Shown: positions 43,005-50,560 of the stretch, one piece after another
Layout of the letters: the number at the start of each line of letters is the position of its first letter
Numbering within the stretch: position 1 is the stretch's first letter
Program-made: the position numbers and the translations under genes
From: an uncultured delta proteobacterium
GTDB lineage: Bacteria; Desulfobacterota; BSN033; UBA1163
Reading direction: 5' to 3'
Assembly: GCA_963708295.1 (NCBI GenBank)
Contig: CAVPSJ010000015.1
Location: 256,001-320,000, forward strand
DNA: 64,000 nt
The notes under the pieces: generated by a model
What the model was told of the DNA's origin: nothing
Databases searched by the model: none
The model's input: only the letters and a program-made list of their open reading frames with translations

Positions 43005-43231
43005 GAGCAGACCCTCCTCGGAATCACCCTTCCCTCTCAAATAGTTTTATTCTCACACGATCAAGATTGAGTTTCAATAAGATTTTTGAAGAGAGTTGCT
43101 TTAGGACGAGGATGACGAGCTGGTCCGTAATTGAGTAGACGGTTGATTAACCCACCCCCACCCCCTGAACCATGTAAGGTTCAGGGCATTGTCCTGCACC
43201 CCGCGTGGTGCAGGGCTTTCCCTCCCCCTGG

Positions 43232-43461
43232 GAGACTGTGTCACAATGGAACGTCTGAGGGGAGAGGCAGTCGGCTTCCAAAGCTTTAGAACGCGGGTCT
43301 TTTAGGAATGGGGAACCGTCGTTGGCTAAAAATCGGAATGTGTTCATAGGGTTGGCGACCCTGAATCCAAACGGTTATAAAGGTTGCCGCTCTAAATCTT
43401 CTCCACCCGACCGCCTCTCCCCTTTTTTGAAAAGCGTTTTTTCATATTGCGACACAGCCTC
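43232..43461. mobile_element. 230-bp MITE inserted in the loop of a REP-like hairpin
   Basis: TIRs GAGACTGTGTCACAAT / ATTGCGACACAGCCTC; TGG on both sides; outer arms CTTTCCCTCCCC / GGGGAGGGAAAG. Confidence 0.75.
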
Positions 43462-43738
43462 TGGAGGGGAGGGAAAGAATGATCTTCGTCTCCCTGGGGG
43501 GGGGGATTATATTCTTCCTCCACCTTCAAGGGGGAGGTCAGGGAGGGGATGGGGTTCCGTTAGTGATAGAAATCATAATGGCGCGCTTTTCTTCCGAGGC
43601 GATGCGCCCCGTTTCGGTGAGGAAACAAAAAACCCCTGGCGGAAGTGTCGAAGGGAAAATGCCCAGGGGAGTTGCAGTTGCGGGAGGGATACTACAGGGG
43701 AAACAATGTGGCGGGAAAGAAACTAACAAAGTCCTGGT

Positions 43739-43921
43739 TCATTCGTCAGTATCCTCCTTTTTCTCGTAGAATGACTTGATGCCCAGACTACCCACGCCCG
43801 TCATAATCTTTTTCTTTCCATCCTGCGATTCGAGTACAACCATGTTGTTCACGACCTTCTTGACCGTATACTTAGCCCCGTCCAAAGTACTTTTAAATAT
43901 GTCTCCCTCCTTTGCTTCCAC
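43739..43921 (-). CDS. Small hypothetical protein
   Basis: 60-aa ORF MEAKEGDIFKSTLDGAKYTVKKVVNNMVVLES with upstream purine-rich SD. Confidence 0.6.
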   Translation of the reverse strand: MEAKEGDIFKSTLDGAKYTVKKVVNNMVVLESQDGKKKIMTGVGSLGIKSFYEKKEDTDE

Positions 43922-44084: not shown

Positions 44085-44945
44085 TCATGCCTTAATCCAT
44101 TGCGGCGGATGCAGGCGGCCTTGAGTGACATCCCGCATTTTAACGCCGCTGATGGCTTCGTAAATCATGCCATTTAAGCCATAAATCCAGACGTCAAACG
44201 TGAGCGATTCCTGATCGACCTTCACCGGCACGACCCGGCCAAGATACCTGCCTCCTTTCTTTGTCTTTTGATAAATAAATCTCTTTTCAAAACCTGTGGG
44301 AAAGGCGACCCTGTCGCTGAAGCGTTGTCCCCAGACGCAAGCTGCGTGCATGGCCGCGTCCAGAGGAAATGGCGAACCAAGCAAATTTTCATCGGCTTCA
44401 TCATTCCCGCCGGAAAGATAAGCCAGAGCGCCCTCGGGTGAAACTGCCAAATCGTCGATGATGTTTTGATAAGCTGCTCCGAAAGGTACCAGCTCACGAT
44501 AAATGGTTGCCGCAGGCACGCGGATGCATTTTCCCTCCAGCTTCTCCAAAACCCGGAAAGGAGCTACAGGGCGGAAAGCGGAATCGTCAGTTGCGAATTC
44601 CACACAGGCATGCTCGAGGACGCGGCAGATGGCGCTTGTTTTTGATTTTAGCGACGTCAAGAGCGCGGCGGTCATACGATGCCCACCGGCATACTCTATC
44701 TCCACGGATACGGCCAAATGCTGTGTTTCCGGCGGAACAAACAAAAAGTGGTGGAAGCTGGCCTTTGACAGACGGTTCATCCTCATCTGCGGGAAATGAA
44801 GGTTAACCACACGAGCCAGAGCGATTAAAGCTTCCACCGCGGGCAGAATCACTTTTCCTTCGAACCGGTGATCGCGCAAATAGGGAGATACCTCAATGAC
44901 CGAAGGATAGCGGGTTTTCCTGTTTATTTGGGGAACGATGTCCAT
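44085..44945 (-). CDS. Stand-alone PKS-type dehydratase (double hot-dog)
   Basis: YLRDHRFEGKVILPAV (HxxxGxxxxP), IYRELVPFGAAYQ, PFPLDAAMH (catalytic Asp). Confidence 0.8.
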   Translation of the reverse strand: MDIVPQINRKTRYPSVIEVSPYLRDHRFEGKVILPAVEALIALARVVNLHFPQMRMNRLSKASFHHFLFVPPETQHLAVSVEIEYAGGHRMTAALLTSLKSKTSAICRVLEHACVEFATDDSAFRPVAPFRVLEKLEGKCIRVPAATIYRELVPFGAAYQNIIDDLAVSPEGALAYLSGGNDEADENLLGSPFPLDAAMHAACVWGQRFSDRVAFPTGFEKRFIYQKTKKGGRYLGRVVPVKVDQESLTFDVWIYGLNGMIYEAISGVKMRDVTQGRLHPPQWIKA

Positions 44946-45403
44946 AGCTGAACCGTCTTAGGATCCACGGCCACGGGTGTGCCCGCCAAATTCAAGGCGC
45001 AGTGTTTGGTAAAGCCGGTACAGATCAGATGTCCCTTCTCCGCGTGTGTGATGACGTAGTCGAACTGCAAACGGACCCGCTCCAGATTTACCGGACGCGT
45101 GTGAATATACATCAAATCATCGTAGTACAAAGGCTGATTAAAACTGATGCCCAAATCGAAGATCGGATAAACGTAGCCGCTGGCCTCGATCTCTTTGTAG
45201 GGGTAAGCCAGGTCCCGCATCAACGAGGTACGGCCGAATTCAAAATAACGCAGGTAATTGGAATGATAAACCACTTCCGAGCGATCGGTATCGGCGTAGA
45301 GCGTCCTCTGTTGAGAACGATGCCAGATAAAGCCGCTGGTGCGGTCGCGGACATATCTTTCATCGTTATGATAAATTTCCGGTTTAAACGGCTTGGGCTT
45401 CAT
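44924..45403 (-). CDS. Acyl-CoA/ACP thioesterase (YbgC/4HBT hot-dog family)
   Basis: TLYADTDRSEVVYHSNYLRYFEFGR motif. Confidence 0.88.
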   Translation of the reverse strand: MKPKPFKPEIYHNDERYVRDRTSGFIWHRSQQRTLYADTDRSEVVYHSNYLRYFEFGRTSLMRDLAYPYKEIEASGYVYPIFDLGISFNQPLYYDDLMYIHTRPVNLERVRLQFDYVITHAEKGHLICTGFTKHCALNLAGTPVAVDPKTVQLWTSFPK

Positions 45404-45404
45404 T

Positions 45405-46670
45405 CTACACTCCCCTGAGAATGACACAGCAATTGGTTCCGCCGAATCCGAAGGCATTGGAAAGAGCAATTTCATATCCTTGTCTGCGAGCGGCATTCGG
45501 CACAACATCAATGTCGGAAAGACCGGGATCGGGAAGATGATTCATCGTGGGCAGGATGATTCCGTTCCTCATTCCTTCGATGGTCAGTGCGGCTTCGATG
45601 GCAGCCGTCGCTCCCAGGGTATGTCCTAATTGAGATTTATTGGAAGAAACGGGAATCTTTTCTATTCTCTTGCCGAAAACATCCCGCAGGCACTTTATCT
45701 CCGTTTGATCTCCTGTAGGCGTGGAAGTGCCGTGGGCGTTGATATATTGAATATCTTCCGGCTTTAACCCTGCATCTTCGATGGTTTCCCTGATGGCCCG
45801 TATAATGGTCGTCGCATTCGGGCTGGTGTAATGATGGGCATCCGATGTCCAGCCGACACCCAACACCTCGGCTTTGGGTTTCAAGCCATGAACGTTAAGC
45901 GATTCTTCCGCCGCGAGAACAACCACGCCTGCCCCCTCCGATAGGACGAACCCTTTGCGATCGACGCTGAAAGGACGGGAGGCCTGTCCGGGATCGTGAT
46001 AAGCGCGATCGCCCGGACGAACTTTGATCGTGGCGTTCATGTTGGCGAAGCCGTGAATCAATTCCGGTAAAAGGGGCGCGTCGGCGCCGCCAGCCAGGGC
46101 AAAATCGCAATCGCCATCCCGAATCATCCTTGCTCCGATGCCGATGGCATGATTCCCCGAGGCGCAAGCGCCCTGGGGCGAAAAAATAGGACCGGCAAAT
46201 TTTAACAGCATTCCGGCTTTACCGGAGGGGAGGTTCGCGCATAGATTAGGCACCAAATAGGGGCTGACCCTCAGGGGCCCACGTTGTTCCAAATTGTGCA
46301 TGGCAACGCGAAAAGCATCCGATCCGTTCAGGGCCGAACCGATCAGGCAAGCCATCCGGGGAGCAGTCTCTTCATCGATGGGAACTCCCGAGTTTTCCAG
46401 CGCCTCCTTGCAGACAGCCATCGTTAAAATCACGAAGGCGGCATTCCAGTTATAAACTTCTTTCGCACTGGTGAAGTCAAGCTTGAGCGGATCCCAGTCC
46501 GGAATTTCTCCAACGATGTCGCAGGCCGATTCCACGTTGCACCGCGTCACCTTCCTGAAGCCCGTTTCACCCTGGATGGCCCTTTTCCATGTTTTCTCAA
46601 AGGTGCTTCCAAGCGGGGTGGCCGCGCCGTAACCGATCACAAAAACTCTTCTGTTCTTAGGAGCTTTCAT
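45405..46670 (-). CDS. Beta-ketoacyl-ACP synthase (FabF-like), KS2
   Basis: GACASG (Cys), YINAHGTST (His), KSQLGHTLG (His), NAFGFGGTN. Confidence 0.92.
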   Translation of the reverse strand: MKAPKNRRVFVIGYGAATPLGSTFEKTWKRAIQGETGFRKVTRCNVESACDIVGEIPDWDPLKLDFTSAKEVYNWNAAFVILTMAVCKEALENSGVPIDEETAPRMACLIGSALNGSDAFRVAMHNLEQRGPLRVSPYLVPNLCANLPSGKAGMLLKFAGPIFSPQGACASGNHAIGIGARMIRDGDCDFALAGGADAPLLPELIHGFANMNATIKVRPGDRAYHDPGQASRPFSVDRKGFVLSEGAGVVVLAAEESLNVHGLKPKAEVLGVGWTSDAHHYTSPNATTIIRAIRETIEDAGLKPEDIQYINAHGTSTPTGDQTEIKCLRDVFGKRIEKIPVSSNKSQLGHTLGATAAIEAALTIEGMRNGIILPTMNHLPDPGLSDIDVVPNAARRQGYEIALSNAFGFGGTNCCVILRGV

Positions 46671-46686
46671 ACGCCGCTATCACGAT

Positions 46687-47940
46687 TTATGCAAGCCTGC
46701 GCAACACTAAACAGGAATTGCATCCGCCGAAACCAAAGGCGTTCTTCAATACGAATTCTTGGCTCAACTTTCTGGCGCCTTCGGCGACGCAGTCCATCAC
46801 CATTCCCGGATCGGGGGCATAATTGATCGTCGGAAGCAACGTTTCTTCGGTCATCCCTTCCATGGCCAGAATCGTTTCAATAGCGCTCGACGCTCCCATG
46901 GCGTGTCCCAACTGGGATTTATTTGCCGATACGGGCGGAACGTTTTTTCCGAAAATGTTCGAGAGGGCATCCGCTTCCACTTTATCGCCCACCTTCGTCG
47001 ACGTGGCATGGGCGTTAATCGCGTCGATATCGTCGGGCCGCAATCCGGCATGGGTGAGGGTTTCTTCAATACATCTTTGGACCGTCTCCAGCCTGGGCGA
47101 AACAAAATGGCCGGCGTCGGATGTCATGGACCAGCCGGCCATTTCTATTCTGGGCGTGAGTCCATGCGCCTTGGCAAATTCTTCAGTCGCCAAAATAATG
47201 CAACCCGCGCCTTCGGAAACGACAAAACCTCTTCGATGGATGGAAAAAGGCCTGCTCGTTTTTTCCGGTGGTTCTTCCGGCTGCCCTTCTTTCGGACGGT
47301 ACGCCCCGTTCATGGTGGCGAATCCGGCGACAATCGGTTCAACGAGGGGGAAATCCACAGCGCCGCCGATCACCACATCCGCCCTGTTTCCCTGCAGCAT
47401 CATCCCGCCGATGATGAGCGAGGCGACCCCGGTAGCGCACGCCGTAACGGTTGAACAGATGGGACCCGTTGCTCCGGTAAGGATGGAAACCTTACCGCCC
47501 ACCATATTAATGCAGGAATTGGGGTTGGTAAAGGGGTGAGGCATCTTGCCTTCCGCAACCATCAGGCGATCCGCCTTTAGAACAGCGTCGAGACCGCCAA
47601 CGGCAGTGCTGAAAGTTACCGCAACCCGTGGCGCGATATCGGGTGTTATTGAAATTCCACTTTTTTCCAGAGCACGATGCGCGACCAGAAGAGCGTATTT
47701 AAAGATCGGCGAGGTCCAATACCCCATTTCCCGCGGCCGCAAAAAAGGATAGGGCCCCACATCGACCTCGGCGACTTCTCCGGCAACGCGCACGGGAAAG
47801 TCGGCGCTAAGCGGGAATCGGGTCAACTTTCCGATTCCGCTCTCCCCGGCGACCGCGCGCTGCCATTGATGACCCAGATCCGTTCCTAAAGGAGAAACGG
47901 CATCGTAGCCCAATATCACGGCCTTCTTTGAACCCATCAC
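46687..47940 (-). CDS. Beta-ketoacyl-ACP synthase (FabF-like), KS1
   Basis: TACATG (Cys), AINAHATST (His), KSQLGHAMG (His), NAFGFGGCN. Confidence 0.92.
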   Translation of the reverse strand: MMGSKKAVILGYDAVSPLGTDLGHQWQRAVAGESGIGKLTRFPLSADFPVRVAGEVAEVDVGPYPFLRPREMGYWTSPIFKYALLVAHRALEKSGISITPDIAPRVAVTFSTAVGGLDAVLKADRLMVAEGKMPHPFTNPNSCINMVGGKVSILTGATGPICSTVTACATGVASLIIGGMMLQGNRADVVIGGAVDFPLVEPIVAGFATMNGAYRPKEGQPEEPPEKTSRPFSIHRRGFVVSEGAGCIILATEEFAKAHGLTPRIEMAGWSMTSDAGHFVSPRLETVQRCIEETLTHAGLRPDDIDAINAHATSTKVGDKVEADALSNIFGKNVPPVSANKSQLGHAMGASSAIETILAMEGMTEETLLPTINYAPDPGMVMDCVAEGARKLSQEFVLKNAFGFGGCNSCLVLRRLA

Positions 47941-48033
47941 ATCCTTCCTGAAAGATACGAAAAATTCCTTCCCGGGGAAAAGGAAACCCCGGAGGATGAT
48001 CGTCCATGCGCCTCTATCAACGATGGTTGGGAC

Positions 48034-49029
48034 TTACCACGGAATAAACCGGTACAGCTTGGCGAACATCTCGTAAACTTCGATCCAGTTTTGCAAATCT
48101 TTGGTCGAATTCATATGCTCCCGCTTGTTGACCATAATCCAGCTCATGTGCGCCGCTCCATCCTTGCACGTGAGACAATCGCGCGTTGCCGACGTGCAGC
48201 ATCGGTGAACGGTTTGCAAATCGGAAGCCCAGCGGATAAAATGGATCAGACGGCGGGGTTGCGGTTTTCTGTGATCCCGGGACTCCGTCACGGACGGACA
48301 TTCCTCCCAGCCAAAACGGCGACCCATCATCTTCCCGGTCGTGATCACTTCATGGTAGTATTTGCTCGAGATGACCGTTTGAGAGTATCGGTCCAGCATG
48401 CCGTCCATTTCGCAGCGTAAATCTTCTAGCTCGCCTTCGCGCCAGGAAAACCCGTCCACCCCCTCGTCATTCGACAGAAGCTGGAGATGCACTTTCAAGC
48501 CGACATCCGCAATTCGTTTGATGACCGGTTCGATCTTTCCCACCTGCCGCGGCGTGATGGTGTACAGATAGTAGGTGTAAGGGTCGCCGGCATAATTTCT
48601 ACTGGAAACGGCAAAGGTATCGCGCCCGCGAAGAATCTTTTCATCCCCGGGGCCGCCCCACAGTGAAATCCCCACCATCATATCGGGAAACTGATCACGG
48701 GAAACTTTAATCTGTCCGTTGGTGGCGCAATACGTCGGCAGGCGTTTGTAAAAAGCCTCAACGCGGTCCAGGCAAAGCGTCGGCTCTCCGCCGATCAGGA
48801 TCGCCAGATTCACACCGCGCTCTTTTTCTTTATCGATAAAATTTTCCCATTTCCGTATATCCATTTCCTCCGCTACTTGATGCTCCCCCGAAGAAAAGAA
48901 GAAGCACCCCTTACAGCGTAAATTACAGCGGTTCGTTACATCATAGATGGAACTGCGGATGTTAAGATTGGCAATTCGCTTGTAGCGGGCTTGCCAATCG
49001 TTATCCAGCAGGGAACTCACTGTCTTCAT
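48034..49029 (-). CDS. Radical SAM protein A
   Basis: CNLRCKGC (CxxxCxxC), GGEP; C-terminal C...CC-x6-CxxC. Confidence 0.9.
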   Translation of the reverse strand: MKTVSSLLDNDWQARYKRIANLNIRSSIYDVTNRCNLRCKGCFFFSSGEHQVAEEMDIRKWENFIDKEKERGVNLAILIGGEPTLCLDRVEAFYKRLPTYCATNGQIKVSRDQFPDMMVGISLWGGPGDEKILRGRDTFAVSSRNYAGDPYTYYLYTITPRQVGKIEPVIKRIADVGLKVHLQLLSNDEGVDGFSWREGELEDLRCEMDGMLDRYSQTVISSKYYHEVITTGKMMGRRFGWEECPSVTESRDHRKPQPRRLIHFIRWASDLQTVHRCCTSATRDCLTCKDGAAHMSWIMVNKREHMNSTKDLQNWIEVYEMFAKLYRFIPW

Positions 49030-49074
49030 CCACTCGGCCCTTCCATGTCCGTGGTGTTCTTCCCCTGGCCATCC

Positions 49075-49119
49075 CCGTTCACCCTGAGCCTGTCGAAGGG
49101 CAAACTCAGCACGAACGGC
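49075..49119. repeat. REP-like element between the radical SAM genes
   Basis: CCGTTCACCCTGAGCCTGTCGAAGGGCAAACTCAGCACGAACGG; the TGAGCCTGTCGA core recurs at 52890 and 52942. Confidence 0.65.
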
Positions 49120-49187
49120 TTCATCCTCAGTGCCTGTACGATGATGGACGATTAGGATCTATGATAGTATCTATGCCGGCATCCTTG

Positions 49188-50267
49188 TTAATGTGGAGCG
49201 ATCTGTGTCGGCTCGATCGGCTCGGCACAAAGGTTTTCCCCTTTTTCATAGTCCATGACCCAGACCGACAGATAAGTGTCGACATAATCAAGCCAGGATT
49301 TAAATGAGGCCAGGTTATGGGCATGGCGGTAAAGGCGCGCCGTGACGACAGCGGACCCGGCGGCGTAATGACGGCAATCGTCGCAATCCGTATCCGGCAC
49401 GCAGCAGGCAACCGACCTGTCCCAGTTCAAGTCCGTTCTGTATTGCCGGAAAGATCTGCCCAGACCGATATCCTGGGAAGGATTCTGGCGGGGATAGGAA
49501 CAACGGTAAAGATCGTGCAAACCTTTTTGATGGGTGTGTGCCACGGCATTGTAAACGGAAAAAAGAATATTTTGCGGATATTTATTCAAAAGCGCTATCA
49601 TCTTTTGTTTTGTTCGTTGAAGAGATTCATCATCATGGCGCAGGGGGCCGGTATAACCGACCGGAGAAGAAAACACATTAAAGGTTAATTTACAACCGTG
49701 GGTCACAAGCGCTTCGACGACCTCATGGACTTCATCGATATTTCCCCGCGTAAAAGTGTAAACAAACACCGCCCGCGGATCATTTTTATAATTTTCGATC
49801 TGCGCTTTCAAAAGATTTTTCGCTTTTCGGATGCGCAGGCTGGTTTCGTCATTGCCCCAGACGGAGATGTGAACCTTATAACGGACCGATTCCGGGATTT
49901 TTCTAAAACCATTCGTCGCGATACTGCCCAGCGGCATCTCCTGATAGCACACCTCGAGCAACTCCGGCACCAAAGACGGCTCTGCTCCTGCCAGAACGAC
50001 ATAGGTAATGCCGCGAGCTTTTTCGCCTTGCATCAGCCTTCGCCATGCCTGCACGTCGCCCATTTCCCGGGCAAATTGTTTATCCCCTTCAAAATAATAA
50101 CAGCCGTCACAACGGATATTACAGCGGTTACTCATGTCATACGTTGACTCCCGCAGAAAAAAATATTTCCTGACTTTTTCCCACCGCGCCTTTACCTCCG
50201 GCCGGGCCAAGAGCTCGGAAAATTTCGGTTTGGCAGGTTCCAAAAAATCTTTAGGGTTAATCGTCAT
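49188..50267 (-). CDS. Radical SAM protein B
   Basis: CNIRCDGC (CxxxCxxC), GAEP, ATNG; C-terminal C...CC-x5-CxxC. Confidence 0.9.
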   Translation of the reverse strand: MTINPKDFLEPAKPKFSELLARPEVKARWEKVRKYFFLRESTYDMSNRCNIRCDGCYYFEGDKQFAREMGDVQAWRRLMQGEKARGITYVVLAGAEPSLVPELLEVCYQEMPLGSIATNGFRKIPESVRYKVHISVWGNDETSLRIRKAKNLLKAQIENYKNDPRAVFVYTFTRGNIDEVHEVVEALVTHGCKLTFNVFSSPVGYTGPLRHDDESLQRTKQKMIALLNKYPQNILFSVYNAVAHTHQKGLHDLYRCSYPRQNPSQDIGLGRSFRQYRTDLNWDRSVACCVPDTDCDDCRHYAAGSAVVTARLYRHAHNLASFKSWLDYVDTYLSVWVMDYEKGENLCAEPIEPTQIAPH

Positions 50268-50287
50268 AGACCGGTCATCTCTGTCGA

Positions 50288-50560
50288 CTAATTTTTCGTG
50301 GCAAGTTTTTCTTCGATATAATCGGCGATCAGACGAATTGTTTTCAATTTTGGATAGTCGTCTTCATCAATCACAATTTTATATTCATCCTGCAGGACCA
50401 AGGCAAGGGTGGCCAAATCCATACTATCAATGCCCAGTTCATCCACCAGGTCCATATCCGGATTGAATGTATCGGCAGTCACATCTTCCAGCTTAAGTTC
50501 TCCGATGAGGACTTCGGCCACGTGACGGACAATGCCTCTCATATCGATATTTTCAGGCAT
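50288..50560 (-). CDS. Acyl carrier protein
   Basis: Acidic 90-aa protein with DELGIDSMDL phosphopantetheinylation site; SD GGAGG. Confidence 0.92.
   Translation of the reverse strand: MPENIDMRGIVRHVAEVLIGELKLEDVTADTFNPDMDLVDELGIDSMDLATLALVLQDEYKIVIDEDDYPKLKTIRLIADYIEEKLATKN

Follow-up and report, generated by a model that had tools for sequence, protein, structure and literature searches.

Within a 64,000-nucleotide window of DNA from an uncultured delta proteobacterium of the Desulfobacterota (positions 256,001 to 320,000 of contig CAVPSJ010000015.1, GenBank assembly GCA_963708295.1), two adjacent genes encode paralogous radical S-adenosylmethionine (SAM) proteins, here called A and B, which lie directly downstream of an acyl carrier protein (ACP) gene and are consistently found together in this arrangement in related loci. 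We propose, with moderate confidence, that A and B carry out an oxygen-free radical modification of an ACP-bound acyl chain, either as a complex or in consecutive steps; here we infer the ACP-bound substrate, the formation of a complex and the chemistry from sequence and genomic context. Coordinates below are positions in the window. The genome of the window is designated G000 and its contig C15, and L, G and P numbers denote loci, genomes and protein cluster representatives, respectively. The coordinates of the two genes coincide exactly with their open reading frames (ORFs):

48034..49029, minus strand: radical SAM paralogue A, 331 aa
49188..50267, minus strand: radical SAM paralogue B, 359 aa

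The radical SAM pair and its auxiliary cysteines

A first-pass annotation of the window had described a paralogous radical SAM pair with a set of shared motifs and a common CC-x5/6-CxxC tail, and every motif that it named was found in the translations. A and B are 27% identical across 323 residues (BLASTP, E 2e-34), a likeness far above chance, and on this comparison they are true paralogues. The cluster motif is SIYDVTNRCNLRCKGC in A, with CX3CX2C formed by C35, C39 and C42, and STYDMSNRCNIRCDGC in B, with C49, C53 and C56 in the same roles, and a canonical [4Fe-4S]/SAM site is predicted at this position in both proteins. The EKxRG motif occurs as EKERGV in A and EKARGI in B, the ATNG motif is identical in both, and the ISxWG motif reads ISLWG and ISVWG, respectively. 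The SAM-binding motif is GGEP in A and, as had been noted from the letters, GAEP in B; since this alanine state is the majority state of the family, found in 8/8 B rows and 32/46 distant rows of the alignment, it is no defect, and B is no degenerate copy.

A regular-expression scan located the tail of A, CCTSATRDCLTC, starting at residue 277 (CC-x6-CxxC: C277, C278, C285 and C288), and that of B, CCVPDTDCDDC, starting at residue 288 (CC-x5-CxxC: C288, C289, C295 and C298). In an alignment of 74 family members, counted in A numbering, C35, C39, C42, C277 and C288 are invariant (74/74), C285 is kept in 73/74, and C278, the second cysteine of the CC pair, in 63/74. The lone cysteine that had been reported ahead of each tail is indeed present once in each protein, as C244 in A (ECPSV) and C256 in B (YRCSY); however, the two fall in different alignment columns and are clade-specific (20/20 A-clade rows and 8/8 B-clade rows), C244 sitting in a CPS(V/I) motif common to A-like relatives, and they do not form a common feature of the family.

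In Pfam, A matches Radical_SAM (PF04055) at 34.8 bits, above the gathering cut-off of 29.5, as well as Fer4_12, and B scores 25.6 bits against PF04055, under the cut-off, although its cluster motif is present. Neither protein matches SPASM in Pfam (E 0.01) or NCBIfam, and in Pfam both lack the B12-binding domain PF02310 that is present in neighbour genes of relatives; the HpnH model and the DUF3463 C-terminal domain are not among the Pfam matches or the NCBIfam matches listed, which are the best 25 of 36 for A and all 20 for B. Even the highest NCBIfam scores reach roughly a tenth of the respective cut-offs (A, 33.6 versus 400 for ScmE; B, 34.9 versus 340 for PapB). The model of the tetraether and membrane-spanning lipid synthases Tes/Mss (NF045702, cut-off 450) gives 30.9 bits for A and 23.2 bits for B, the match of A being confined to about 60 residues around the cluster motif. 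A PDB sequence search with A likewise matched the cluster-motif region and no other part (best E 0.007), and a search of the ESM Atlas returned the family's own clusters only. By these searches, A and B fall in no curated family, and their family is unnamed in Pfam and NCBIfam.

An AlphaFold2 model of A, based on the family alignment, reached a mean pLDDT of 91.6 and a pTM of 0.91, with a weaker stretch at residues 231-260 (69-80). This model, which supplies the fold evidence for A, was compared with known structures using Foldseek and a second look with VIA, and, in keeping with a partial TIM barrel, it can be superposed on many structures of radical SAM enzymes (Z 12-18). The leading matches, with root-mean-square deviation (rmsd) and number of aligned residues, were:

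SkfB (6efn): Z 18.3, rmsd 4.6 Å, 243 aligned, model residues 20-309
BlsE (7vob): Z 18.0, rmsd 3.5 Å, 258 aligned, model residues 22-326
SuiB (5v1q): Z 16.5, rmsd 3.6 Å, 230 aligned, model residues 11-283
anSMEcpe (4k36): Z 16.4, rmsd 3.8 Å, 258 aligned, model residues 23-329

Viperins (about 16), MoaA (13.4) and GDGT-MAS (13.2) gave lower Z scores. The model thus places A in the twitch/SPASM branch of the radical SAM superfamily; in it, the alignments with SkfB and BlsE extend to residues 309-326, and the number of cysteines would be compatible with one cluster. The seven cysteines of a SPASM domain, which serve two auxiliary clusters, are not found; instead, the tail has three invariant cysteines and one or two clade-variable ones, which fits a single auxiliary cluster. 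The tail therefore most likely ligates one auxiliary Fe-S cluster, the fourth ligand of which may be variable, as a truncated SPASM arrangement of the twitch kind. The earlier suggestion of an auxiliary Fe-S site unlike a full SPASM domain is supported by the missing profile match, the three invariant cysteines and the nearness of the A model to the twitch-type enzymes SkfB and BlsE, the site itself being a prediction.

A word-based search with A returned 1887 relatives, the best 120 of which are all 331-332 aa long and 82-95% identical. A word search for longer, fused homologues gave one match, P0302, which was rejected, having no B-like half and the look of a frameshifted high-GC read-through. 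When 1.84 billion cluster representatives were searched exhaustively with HMMER, 560 matched with an E value of 1e-3 or better, of which 203 reached 1e-10 and 31 reached 1e-30; P0121 (76% identity) is the only full-length A-type representative among them, and the remaining matches are 23-38% identical. In a quick maximum-likelihood tree of 74 sequences with SH-aLRT support values, an A clade of 20 rows and a B clade of 8 rows, to which P0174 and P0167 also belong, are both supported at 100, A groups with A-like relatives (support 100), and a very short branch (0.02, support 94) joins the lineages of A and B. Across orders, A is 69-94% and B 63-89% identical, with the catalytic motifs all retained in both. 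As judged from the tree, the A/B duplication is old, and the pair has been kept since before the split of the phylum's orders.

Two distant members occur as fusions, P0133 (724 aa) with a TubC docking domain and a type I thioesterase of polyketide synthase (PKS)/non-ribosomal peptide synthetase type, and P0161 (562 aa) with an AMP-binding domain; by their domain content, these fusions link the fold to assembly-line chemistry. A single-protein query for the metagenome contexts of distant A-like relatives yielded five loci, one of them readable (L086), in which a single A-like gene stands amid a gene resembling β-ketoacyl-ACP synthase III, two di-iron proteins and a fatty-acyl-AMP-ligase-like gene. 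Taken at the level of sequence and neighbourhood, the family leans to thiotemplate or acyl chemistry, with exceptions.

The ACP-B-A core and its seven-gene cassette

We scanned one genome per species with a pattern search, in which 562 stretches were matched, 544 of them encoding a close relative of A, and kept the best 80 loci; the denominators that follow are the testable loci among these. B is directly upstream of A in 75/75 loci, the ACP gene is directly upstream of B in 71/72, and the first of two ketosynthase genes of the cassette (KS1) comes after A in 68/74. The complete seven-gene cassette, described below for the window, is present in 54/58 loci, and four (L007, L016, L032 and L040) carry ACP-B-A without the ketosynthase, thioesterase and dehydratase part, so that the trio is the core of the arrangement. 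The first-pass annotation had connected the pair to ACP and ketosynthase genes, a link that these counts bear out, and had reasoned that membership of a characterised family unrelated to acyl-ACP chemistry, or single occurrence, would speak against its reading; instead, no characterised family claims the two proteins, and the pair is found together with ACP and ketosynthase genes.

The pair is also found as a natural fusion. In L040, the stop codon of B is lost and a 20-residue linker leads in frame into A, giving a 706-aa B-A protein whose residues 1-354 are 77% identical to B and whose residues 375-706 are 84% identical to A. G384 shows the same fused frame, open over 707 aa, alongside an ordinary copy in which the two genes are split. 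This fusion fits a 1:1 working pair as far as sequence goes, without proving one. The fused gene belongs to a second copy of the module (L040 6547-12708, in a genome shared with L030; G384), in which we observed an ACP, the fused B-A, a B12 radical SAM gene with DUF4070 and an AMP-binding ligase, and no ketosynthase, thioesterase or dehydratase.

In the window, the cassette is a compact minus-strand operon of seven genes in the order ACP, B, A, KS1, KS2, thioesterase and PKS-type dehydratase (44085-50560). Besides A and B, it has these features:

50288..50560, minus strand: ACP, 90 aa, first gene of the operon, with a GIDSMD phosphopantetheine site; PF00550 at 38.8 bits
46687..47940, minus strand: KS1, FabF-like ketosynthase, 417 aa; PF00109 and PF02801
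45405..46670, minus strand: KS2, second FabF-like ketosynthase, 421 aa; Pfam and NCBIfam
44924..45403, minus strand: hotdog thioesterase of YbgC/4HBT type; PF13279 and PF03061
44085..44945, minus strand: last cassette gene, a double-hotdog dehydratase of PKS type, 286 aa, containing HxxxGxxxxP; PF14765 and PF21089
50875..50903, minus strand: promoter candidate upstream of ACP, the best sigma-70-like match, TTGACA-17-TACACT; consensus match only
47965-47985, minus strand: terminator-like hairpin in the A-KS1 gap, a 9-bp stem then a T-run; consensus match only

The ACP scores under the cut-off of every NCBIfam ACP model, and KS1 reaches 324.8 bits against TIGR03150, under the cut-off of 493.75. 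In translation, both ketosynthases have the Cys-His-His residues (ACATG, INAHATS and LGHAMG in KS1; ACASG, INAHGTS and LGHTLG in KS2), and the top PDB sequence relatives of both are canonical FabF enzymes. The thioesterase matches TIGR00051 at 78.2 bits, above the cut-off of 68.7, and its PDB matches are YbgC-like thioesterases. Its longest ORF begins at 45511 (44924-45511), with 107 nt lying inside KS2; translation is more likely to start from the ATG at 45403, directly past the KS2 stop, because this gives 159 aa, equal to the ORF length in L047. The dehydratase had no PDB sequence match at E 0.1. Intergenic gaps measure 20 nt between ACP and B, 158 nt between B and A (49030..49187) and 93 nt between A and KS1, where the hairpin candidate could separate ACP-B-A from the ketosynthase, thioesterase and dehydratase genes.

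In relatives, the cassette is mostly part of a longer operon, with a FabA/ApeI-like dehydratase (47/60 loci), a polysaccharide-deacetylase-like gene (42/60) and a B12 radical SAM gene (41/60) upstream and PlsY downstream of the dehydratase (34/53), and in the window it is a free-standing minimal unit. The best G000 matches to these partner genes lie on contig C4, at about 185-190 kb and 1,043 kb. We also observed, on C4 at about 185-190 kb and 221-245 kb, a lipid-type region in which genes for an ACP, an AMP ligase, ketosynthases and several B12 radical SAM proteins occur with a FabA-like and a polysaccharide-deacetylase-like gene and with a further radical SAM gene at C4:243769; this region may be an aryl-polyene-like cluster of the 'ladderane-like' type. 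The genes flanking the cassette in the window are unrelated to it, comprising an aldehyde dehydrogenase, an Fe-alcohol dehydrogenase, a divergent nitrilase, TctABC and a transporter of the major facilitator superfamily. Downstream of the cassette, a minus-strand ORF of 60 aa (43739-43921) has no Pfam family and no counterpart in 80 related loci, and is probably unrelated to it. An Rfam scan found two tRNAs only, both distant from the locus.

Patchy distribution and lateral transfer

In an evenly drawn sample of 401 genomes of the phylum, searched at a threshold of E 1e-20, matches were found in 31 genomes, belonging to 19 of the 254 genera sampled. An A-type gene at 69-100% identity is present in 30 of these, and in all 30 a B-type gene lies 84-2421 bp upstream on the same strand; the match in the remaining genome, G038, is a single distant relative. 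The cassette has no match in any of 11 further genomes from the family to which the window belongs, the 100%-complete genus-mate G246 included, and a DNA search of five family-mates found no cassette match except short repeat matches. The flanking genes do match in family-mates at the DNA level (nitrilase 84-89%, Fe-alcohol dehydrogenase 74%, aldehyde dehydrogenase 69%). RpoB is 92% identical to that of G000 in two genomes that carry the cassette (G401, locus L001; G403, locus L014) and 93% identical in cassette-free G246, so that the cassette is present in some genus-mates and missing in others.

In a Smithellaceae genome (G370/G404, locus L002), RpoB is just 52-68% identical to that of G000, whereas its cassette proteins share 78-91% identity with their counterparts in the window (ACP 88%, B 89%, A 91%, KS1 87%, KS2 90%, thioesterase 88%, dehydratase 78%). 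This discrepancy points to lateral transfer of the whole module; on these comparisons, the cassette moves between anaerobic bacteria and its distribution is patchy. Contamination of the contig was considered and ruled out, as the flanks are 69-89% identical to family-mates and a repeat adjoining the cassette recurs on six other contigs. Two dispersed repeats accompany the cassette:

43160..43478, no strand assigned: dispersed repeat at the 3' end of the cassette, nested, in the 1-kb gap between the dehydratase and aldehyde dehydrogenase genes
about 49075-49100 (-): short, family-specific dispersed repeat in the B-A spacer, 26-35 nt matches

With 43100-43750 as the query, BLASTN gave 76 further matches in G000, on contigs C4, C5, C7, C12, C13, C15 and C17, and the 43160-43478 repeat has many copies in family-mate genomes. 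The repeat in the B-A spacer occurs at 91-100% identity at many sites in the family-mate G327, with one further copy on G000 C4, and by its sequence looks like a small element of repetitive extragenic palindrome or miniature inverted-repeat transposable element type that lengthened the spacer.

Proposed role, alternatives and known systems

We propose that KS1 and KS2 would build a chain on the cassette ACP, with reduction taken from housekeeping fatty acid synthesis of type II (FAS II), and that the PKS-type dehydratase would desaturate it. A and B would abstract hydrogen from the carrier-bound chain without oxygen, and the radical would be resolved either via a C-C bond, which would cyclise or cross-link the chain, or via oxidation by way of the auxiliary cluster, which would desaturate it. 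The hotdog thioesterase would release or proofread the product, and the PlsY that adjoins the cassette in most relatives may pass it into a membrane glycerolipid. In a more specific form, which we regard as improbable, B-A would be a two-subunit, oxygen-independent former of carbocycles or C-C bonds on the growing enoyl-ACP chain, giving a cyclic or cross-linked fatty acid from a mobile seven-gene module in non-anammox anaerobes; stepwise ring closure during elongation has so far been hypothesised for ladderanes only (type c, PMC10139942). An A-B heterodimer is plausible but unproven: it is favoured by the strict adjacency of the genes and the one natural in-frame fusion, and an obligate dimer is disfavoured because distant family members occur singly. 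A prediction of the A + B complex, run without controls, scored 0.00 and speaks neither for nor against binding.

Several points weigh against the proposal that the pair modifies an ACP-bound chain. The G038 relative stands alone beside DnaE2, glucose dehydrogenase and TamB, with no ACP, so the fold is not tied to ACP chemistry everywhere, and family members that occur singly imply that no paralogous partner is needed for the enzyme to work. The 158-nt B-A spacer and the 93-nt A-KS1 gap with its hairpin mean that translational coupling of the pair is not evident in the window. The B-A fusion is a single case in one metagenome-assembled genome, which arose via stop-codon loss across a short spacer, and may reflect faulty assembly or a neutral event. 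Ketoreductase, enoyl reductase, acyltransferase and PlsY are absent from the window cassette, and without the first three of these functions the chain cannot be deduced from the genes. Finally, no characterisation of any member of the A/B family was found in the literature.

In another account, which we consider possible but doubtful, A and B are independent tailoring enzymes that form no complex, each acting by itself at a different carbon or chain length during elongation. Distant members on their own in L086 and G038, the separation of the two genes by 158 nt in the window and by up to 2421 bp in G297, and the full catalytic motifs kept by both proteins are all in line with independent action; however, the strict co-occurrence of the pair (75/75 loci and 30/30 genomes), the natural B-A fusion and the pairing of the two clades since before the phylum's orders split argue against it.

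The proposal also assumes a carrier-bound substrate, and we consider it distinctly improbable that the thioesterase instead frees the acid and that A and B take this free acid, a CoA ester or a completed membrane lipid as their substrate, in a manner resembling Tes/Mss. A thioesterase does belong to the cassette, and there are weak N-terminal matches to NF045702 and to GDGT-MAS (Z 13.2). Nevertheless, the NF045702 match reaches 30.9 bits where 450 would be needed and spans about 60 residues, no membrane-anchoring feature is seen in the secondary structure of the A model, and the ACP gene immediately precedes B in nearly all testable loci.

LipS1/LipS2 is a two-component lipoyl synthase, in which two radical SAM proteins act on a carrier-bound acyl chain, and the first-pass annotation had likened the pair to it. 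The likeness, two radical SAM proteins and a carrier-bound acyl chain that for A and B is predicted, proved to be conceptual only: no sequence basis for it appears among the family matches listed, the auxiliary cysteine motif and its position differ, and the cassette makes its own chain. Sulfur insertion in the manner of LipS1/LipS2 or BioB, with an auxiliary cluster sacrificed to thiolate the chain at one or two carbons, would suit paired enzymes in this context, and three invariant tail cysteines would permit a labile or open cluster site. We nonetheless hold it to be very unlikely, as no lipoyl- or biotin-synthase family occurs in Pfam or among the NCBIfam matches listed (for A the best 25 of 36, for B all 20), the N-terminal auxiliary motif of LipA-type enzymes, CX4CX5C, is not in the A or B translations, the nearest folds are twitch/SPASM enzymes rather than LipA or BioB, and a cassette for thiolating an octanoyl chain would have no need of its own two ketosynthases and PKS-type dehydratase.

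Peptide maturation is the usual job of twitch/SPASM radical SAM enzymes, and the best NCBIfam and PDB neighbours of the pair (ScmE, PapB, SkfB, SuiB and CteB) are peptide maturases, but we give next to no credence to a role for A and B in maturing ribosomally synthesised and post-translationally modified peptides, since the scores are about a tenth of the family cut-offs, no conserved precursor-peptide gene was found, the 60-aa ORF at 43739-43921 being unmatched in 80 related loci, and the neighbours are ACP and ketosynthase genes. What A shares with SkfB, BlsE, SuiB, anSMEcpe and CteB (5why) is a partial TIM-barrel core and a cysteine-bearing C-terminal extension (Z 16-18, A residues 20-326). 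It differs from them in being just 15-18% identical and far under the family cut-offs, in having no seven-cysteine motif, in belonging to a conserved paralogous pair, and in a context of ACP and ketosynthases rather than of a peptide or sugar.

In its gene content, the cassette resembles the ladderane candidate clusters of anammox bacteria and Desulfotalea, which are likewise operons of anaerobes that bring together radical SAM genes, two FabF-like ketosynthases, a dehydratase and an ACP of their own. FAS II-like clusters with radical SAM genes were reported in Kuenenia and Desulfotalea (Rattray 2009, PMC2649909), and these were later tested in E. coli without result (Javidpour 2016, PMC4790861). 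Two of the Kuenenia genes, kuste3342 and kuste3343, beside ACP and FabG, are annotated there simply as SAM radical enzymes (PMC2649909, PMC4790861), and the B12 radical SAM and polysaccharide-deacetylase-like genes in the extended operon of relatives recall kuste2803 and kuste3351 (PMC2649909). Recent work on anammox Cluster I concerns amxACP, amxFabZ, a live/dead FabF heterodimer and a B12 radical SAM protein (PMC10139942, PMC13459092, Granatino 2026 bioRxiv). Unlike the radical SAM protein of that cluster, A and B have no B12-binding domain, and in contrast to the dead amxFabFmut (Granatino 2026 bioRxiv), both cassette ketosynthases keep Cys-His-His. In a further study, antiSMASH 'ladderane' calls in Desulfobacterota and Myxococcota come without a link to a lipid (PMC9902471).

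Few radical SAM enzymes that act on lipid chains have been described, and those recently; Tes, Mss, Grs and Jaw5 are examples (review from the Booker group, PMC13459092). The A/B family is unnamed yet extremely conserved, with a close relative of A in 544 species genomes. Its reaction, once solved, would establish a new route for functionalising fatty chains without oxygen and could put a name to a membrane lipid of syntrophs and sulfate reducers that might serve as a biomarker. The free-standing seven-gene unit of the window offers a minimal expression construct, and genus-mates with and without the cassette a natural comparison. To our knowledge, no lipid-modifying radical SAM enzyme is known as a paralogous pair on an acyl carrier protein. 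Outside lipid chemistry, the F0 synthase CofG/CofH consists of two paralogous radical SAM proteins and also occurs fused, as FbiC. A and B differ from CofG/CofH in family, substrate and context, with no match to it in Pfam or among the NCBIfam matches listed, but they share with it the organisation of a paralogous radical SAM pair that is mostly split and occasionally fused, as in the B-A protein of L040.

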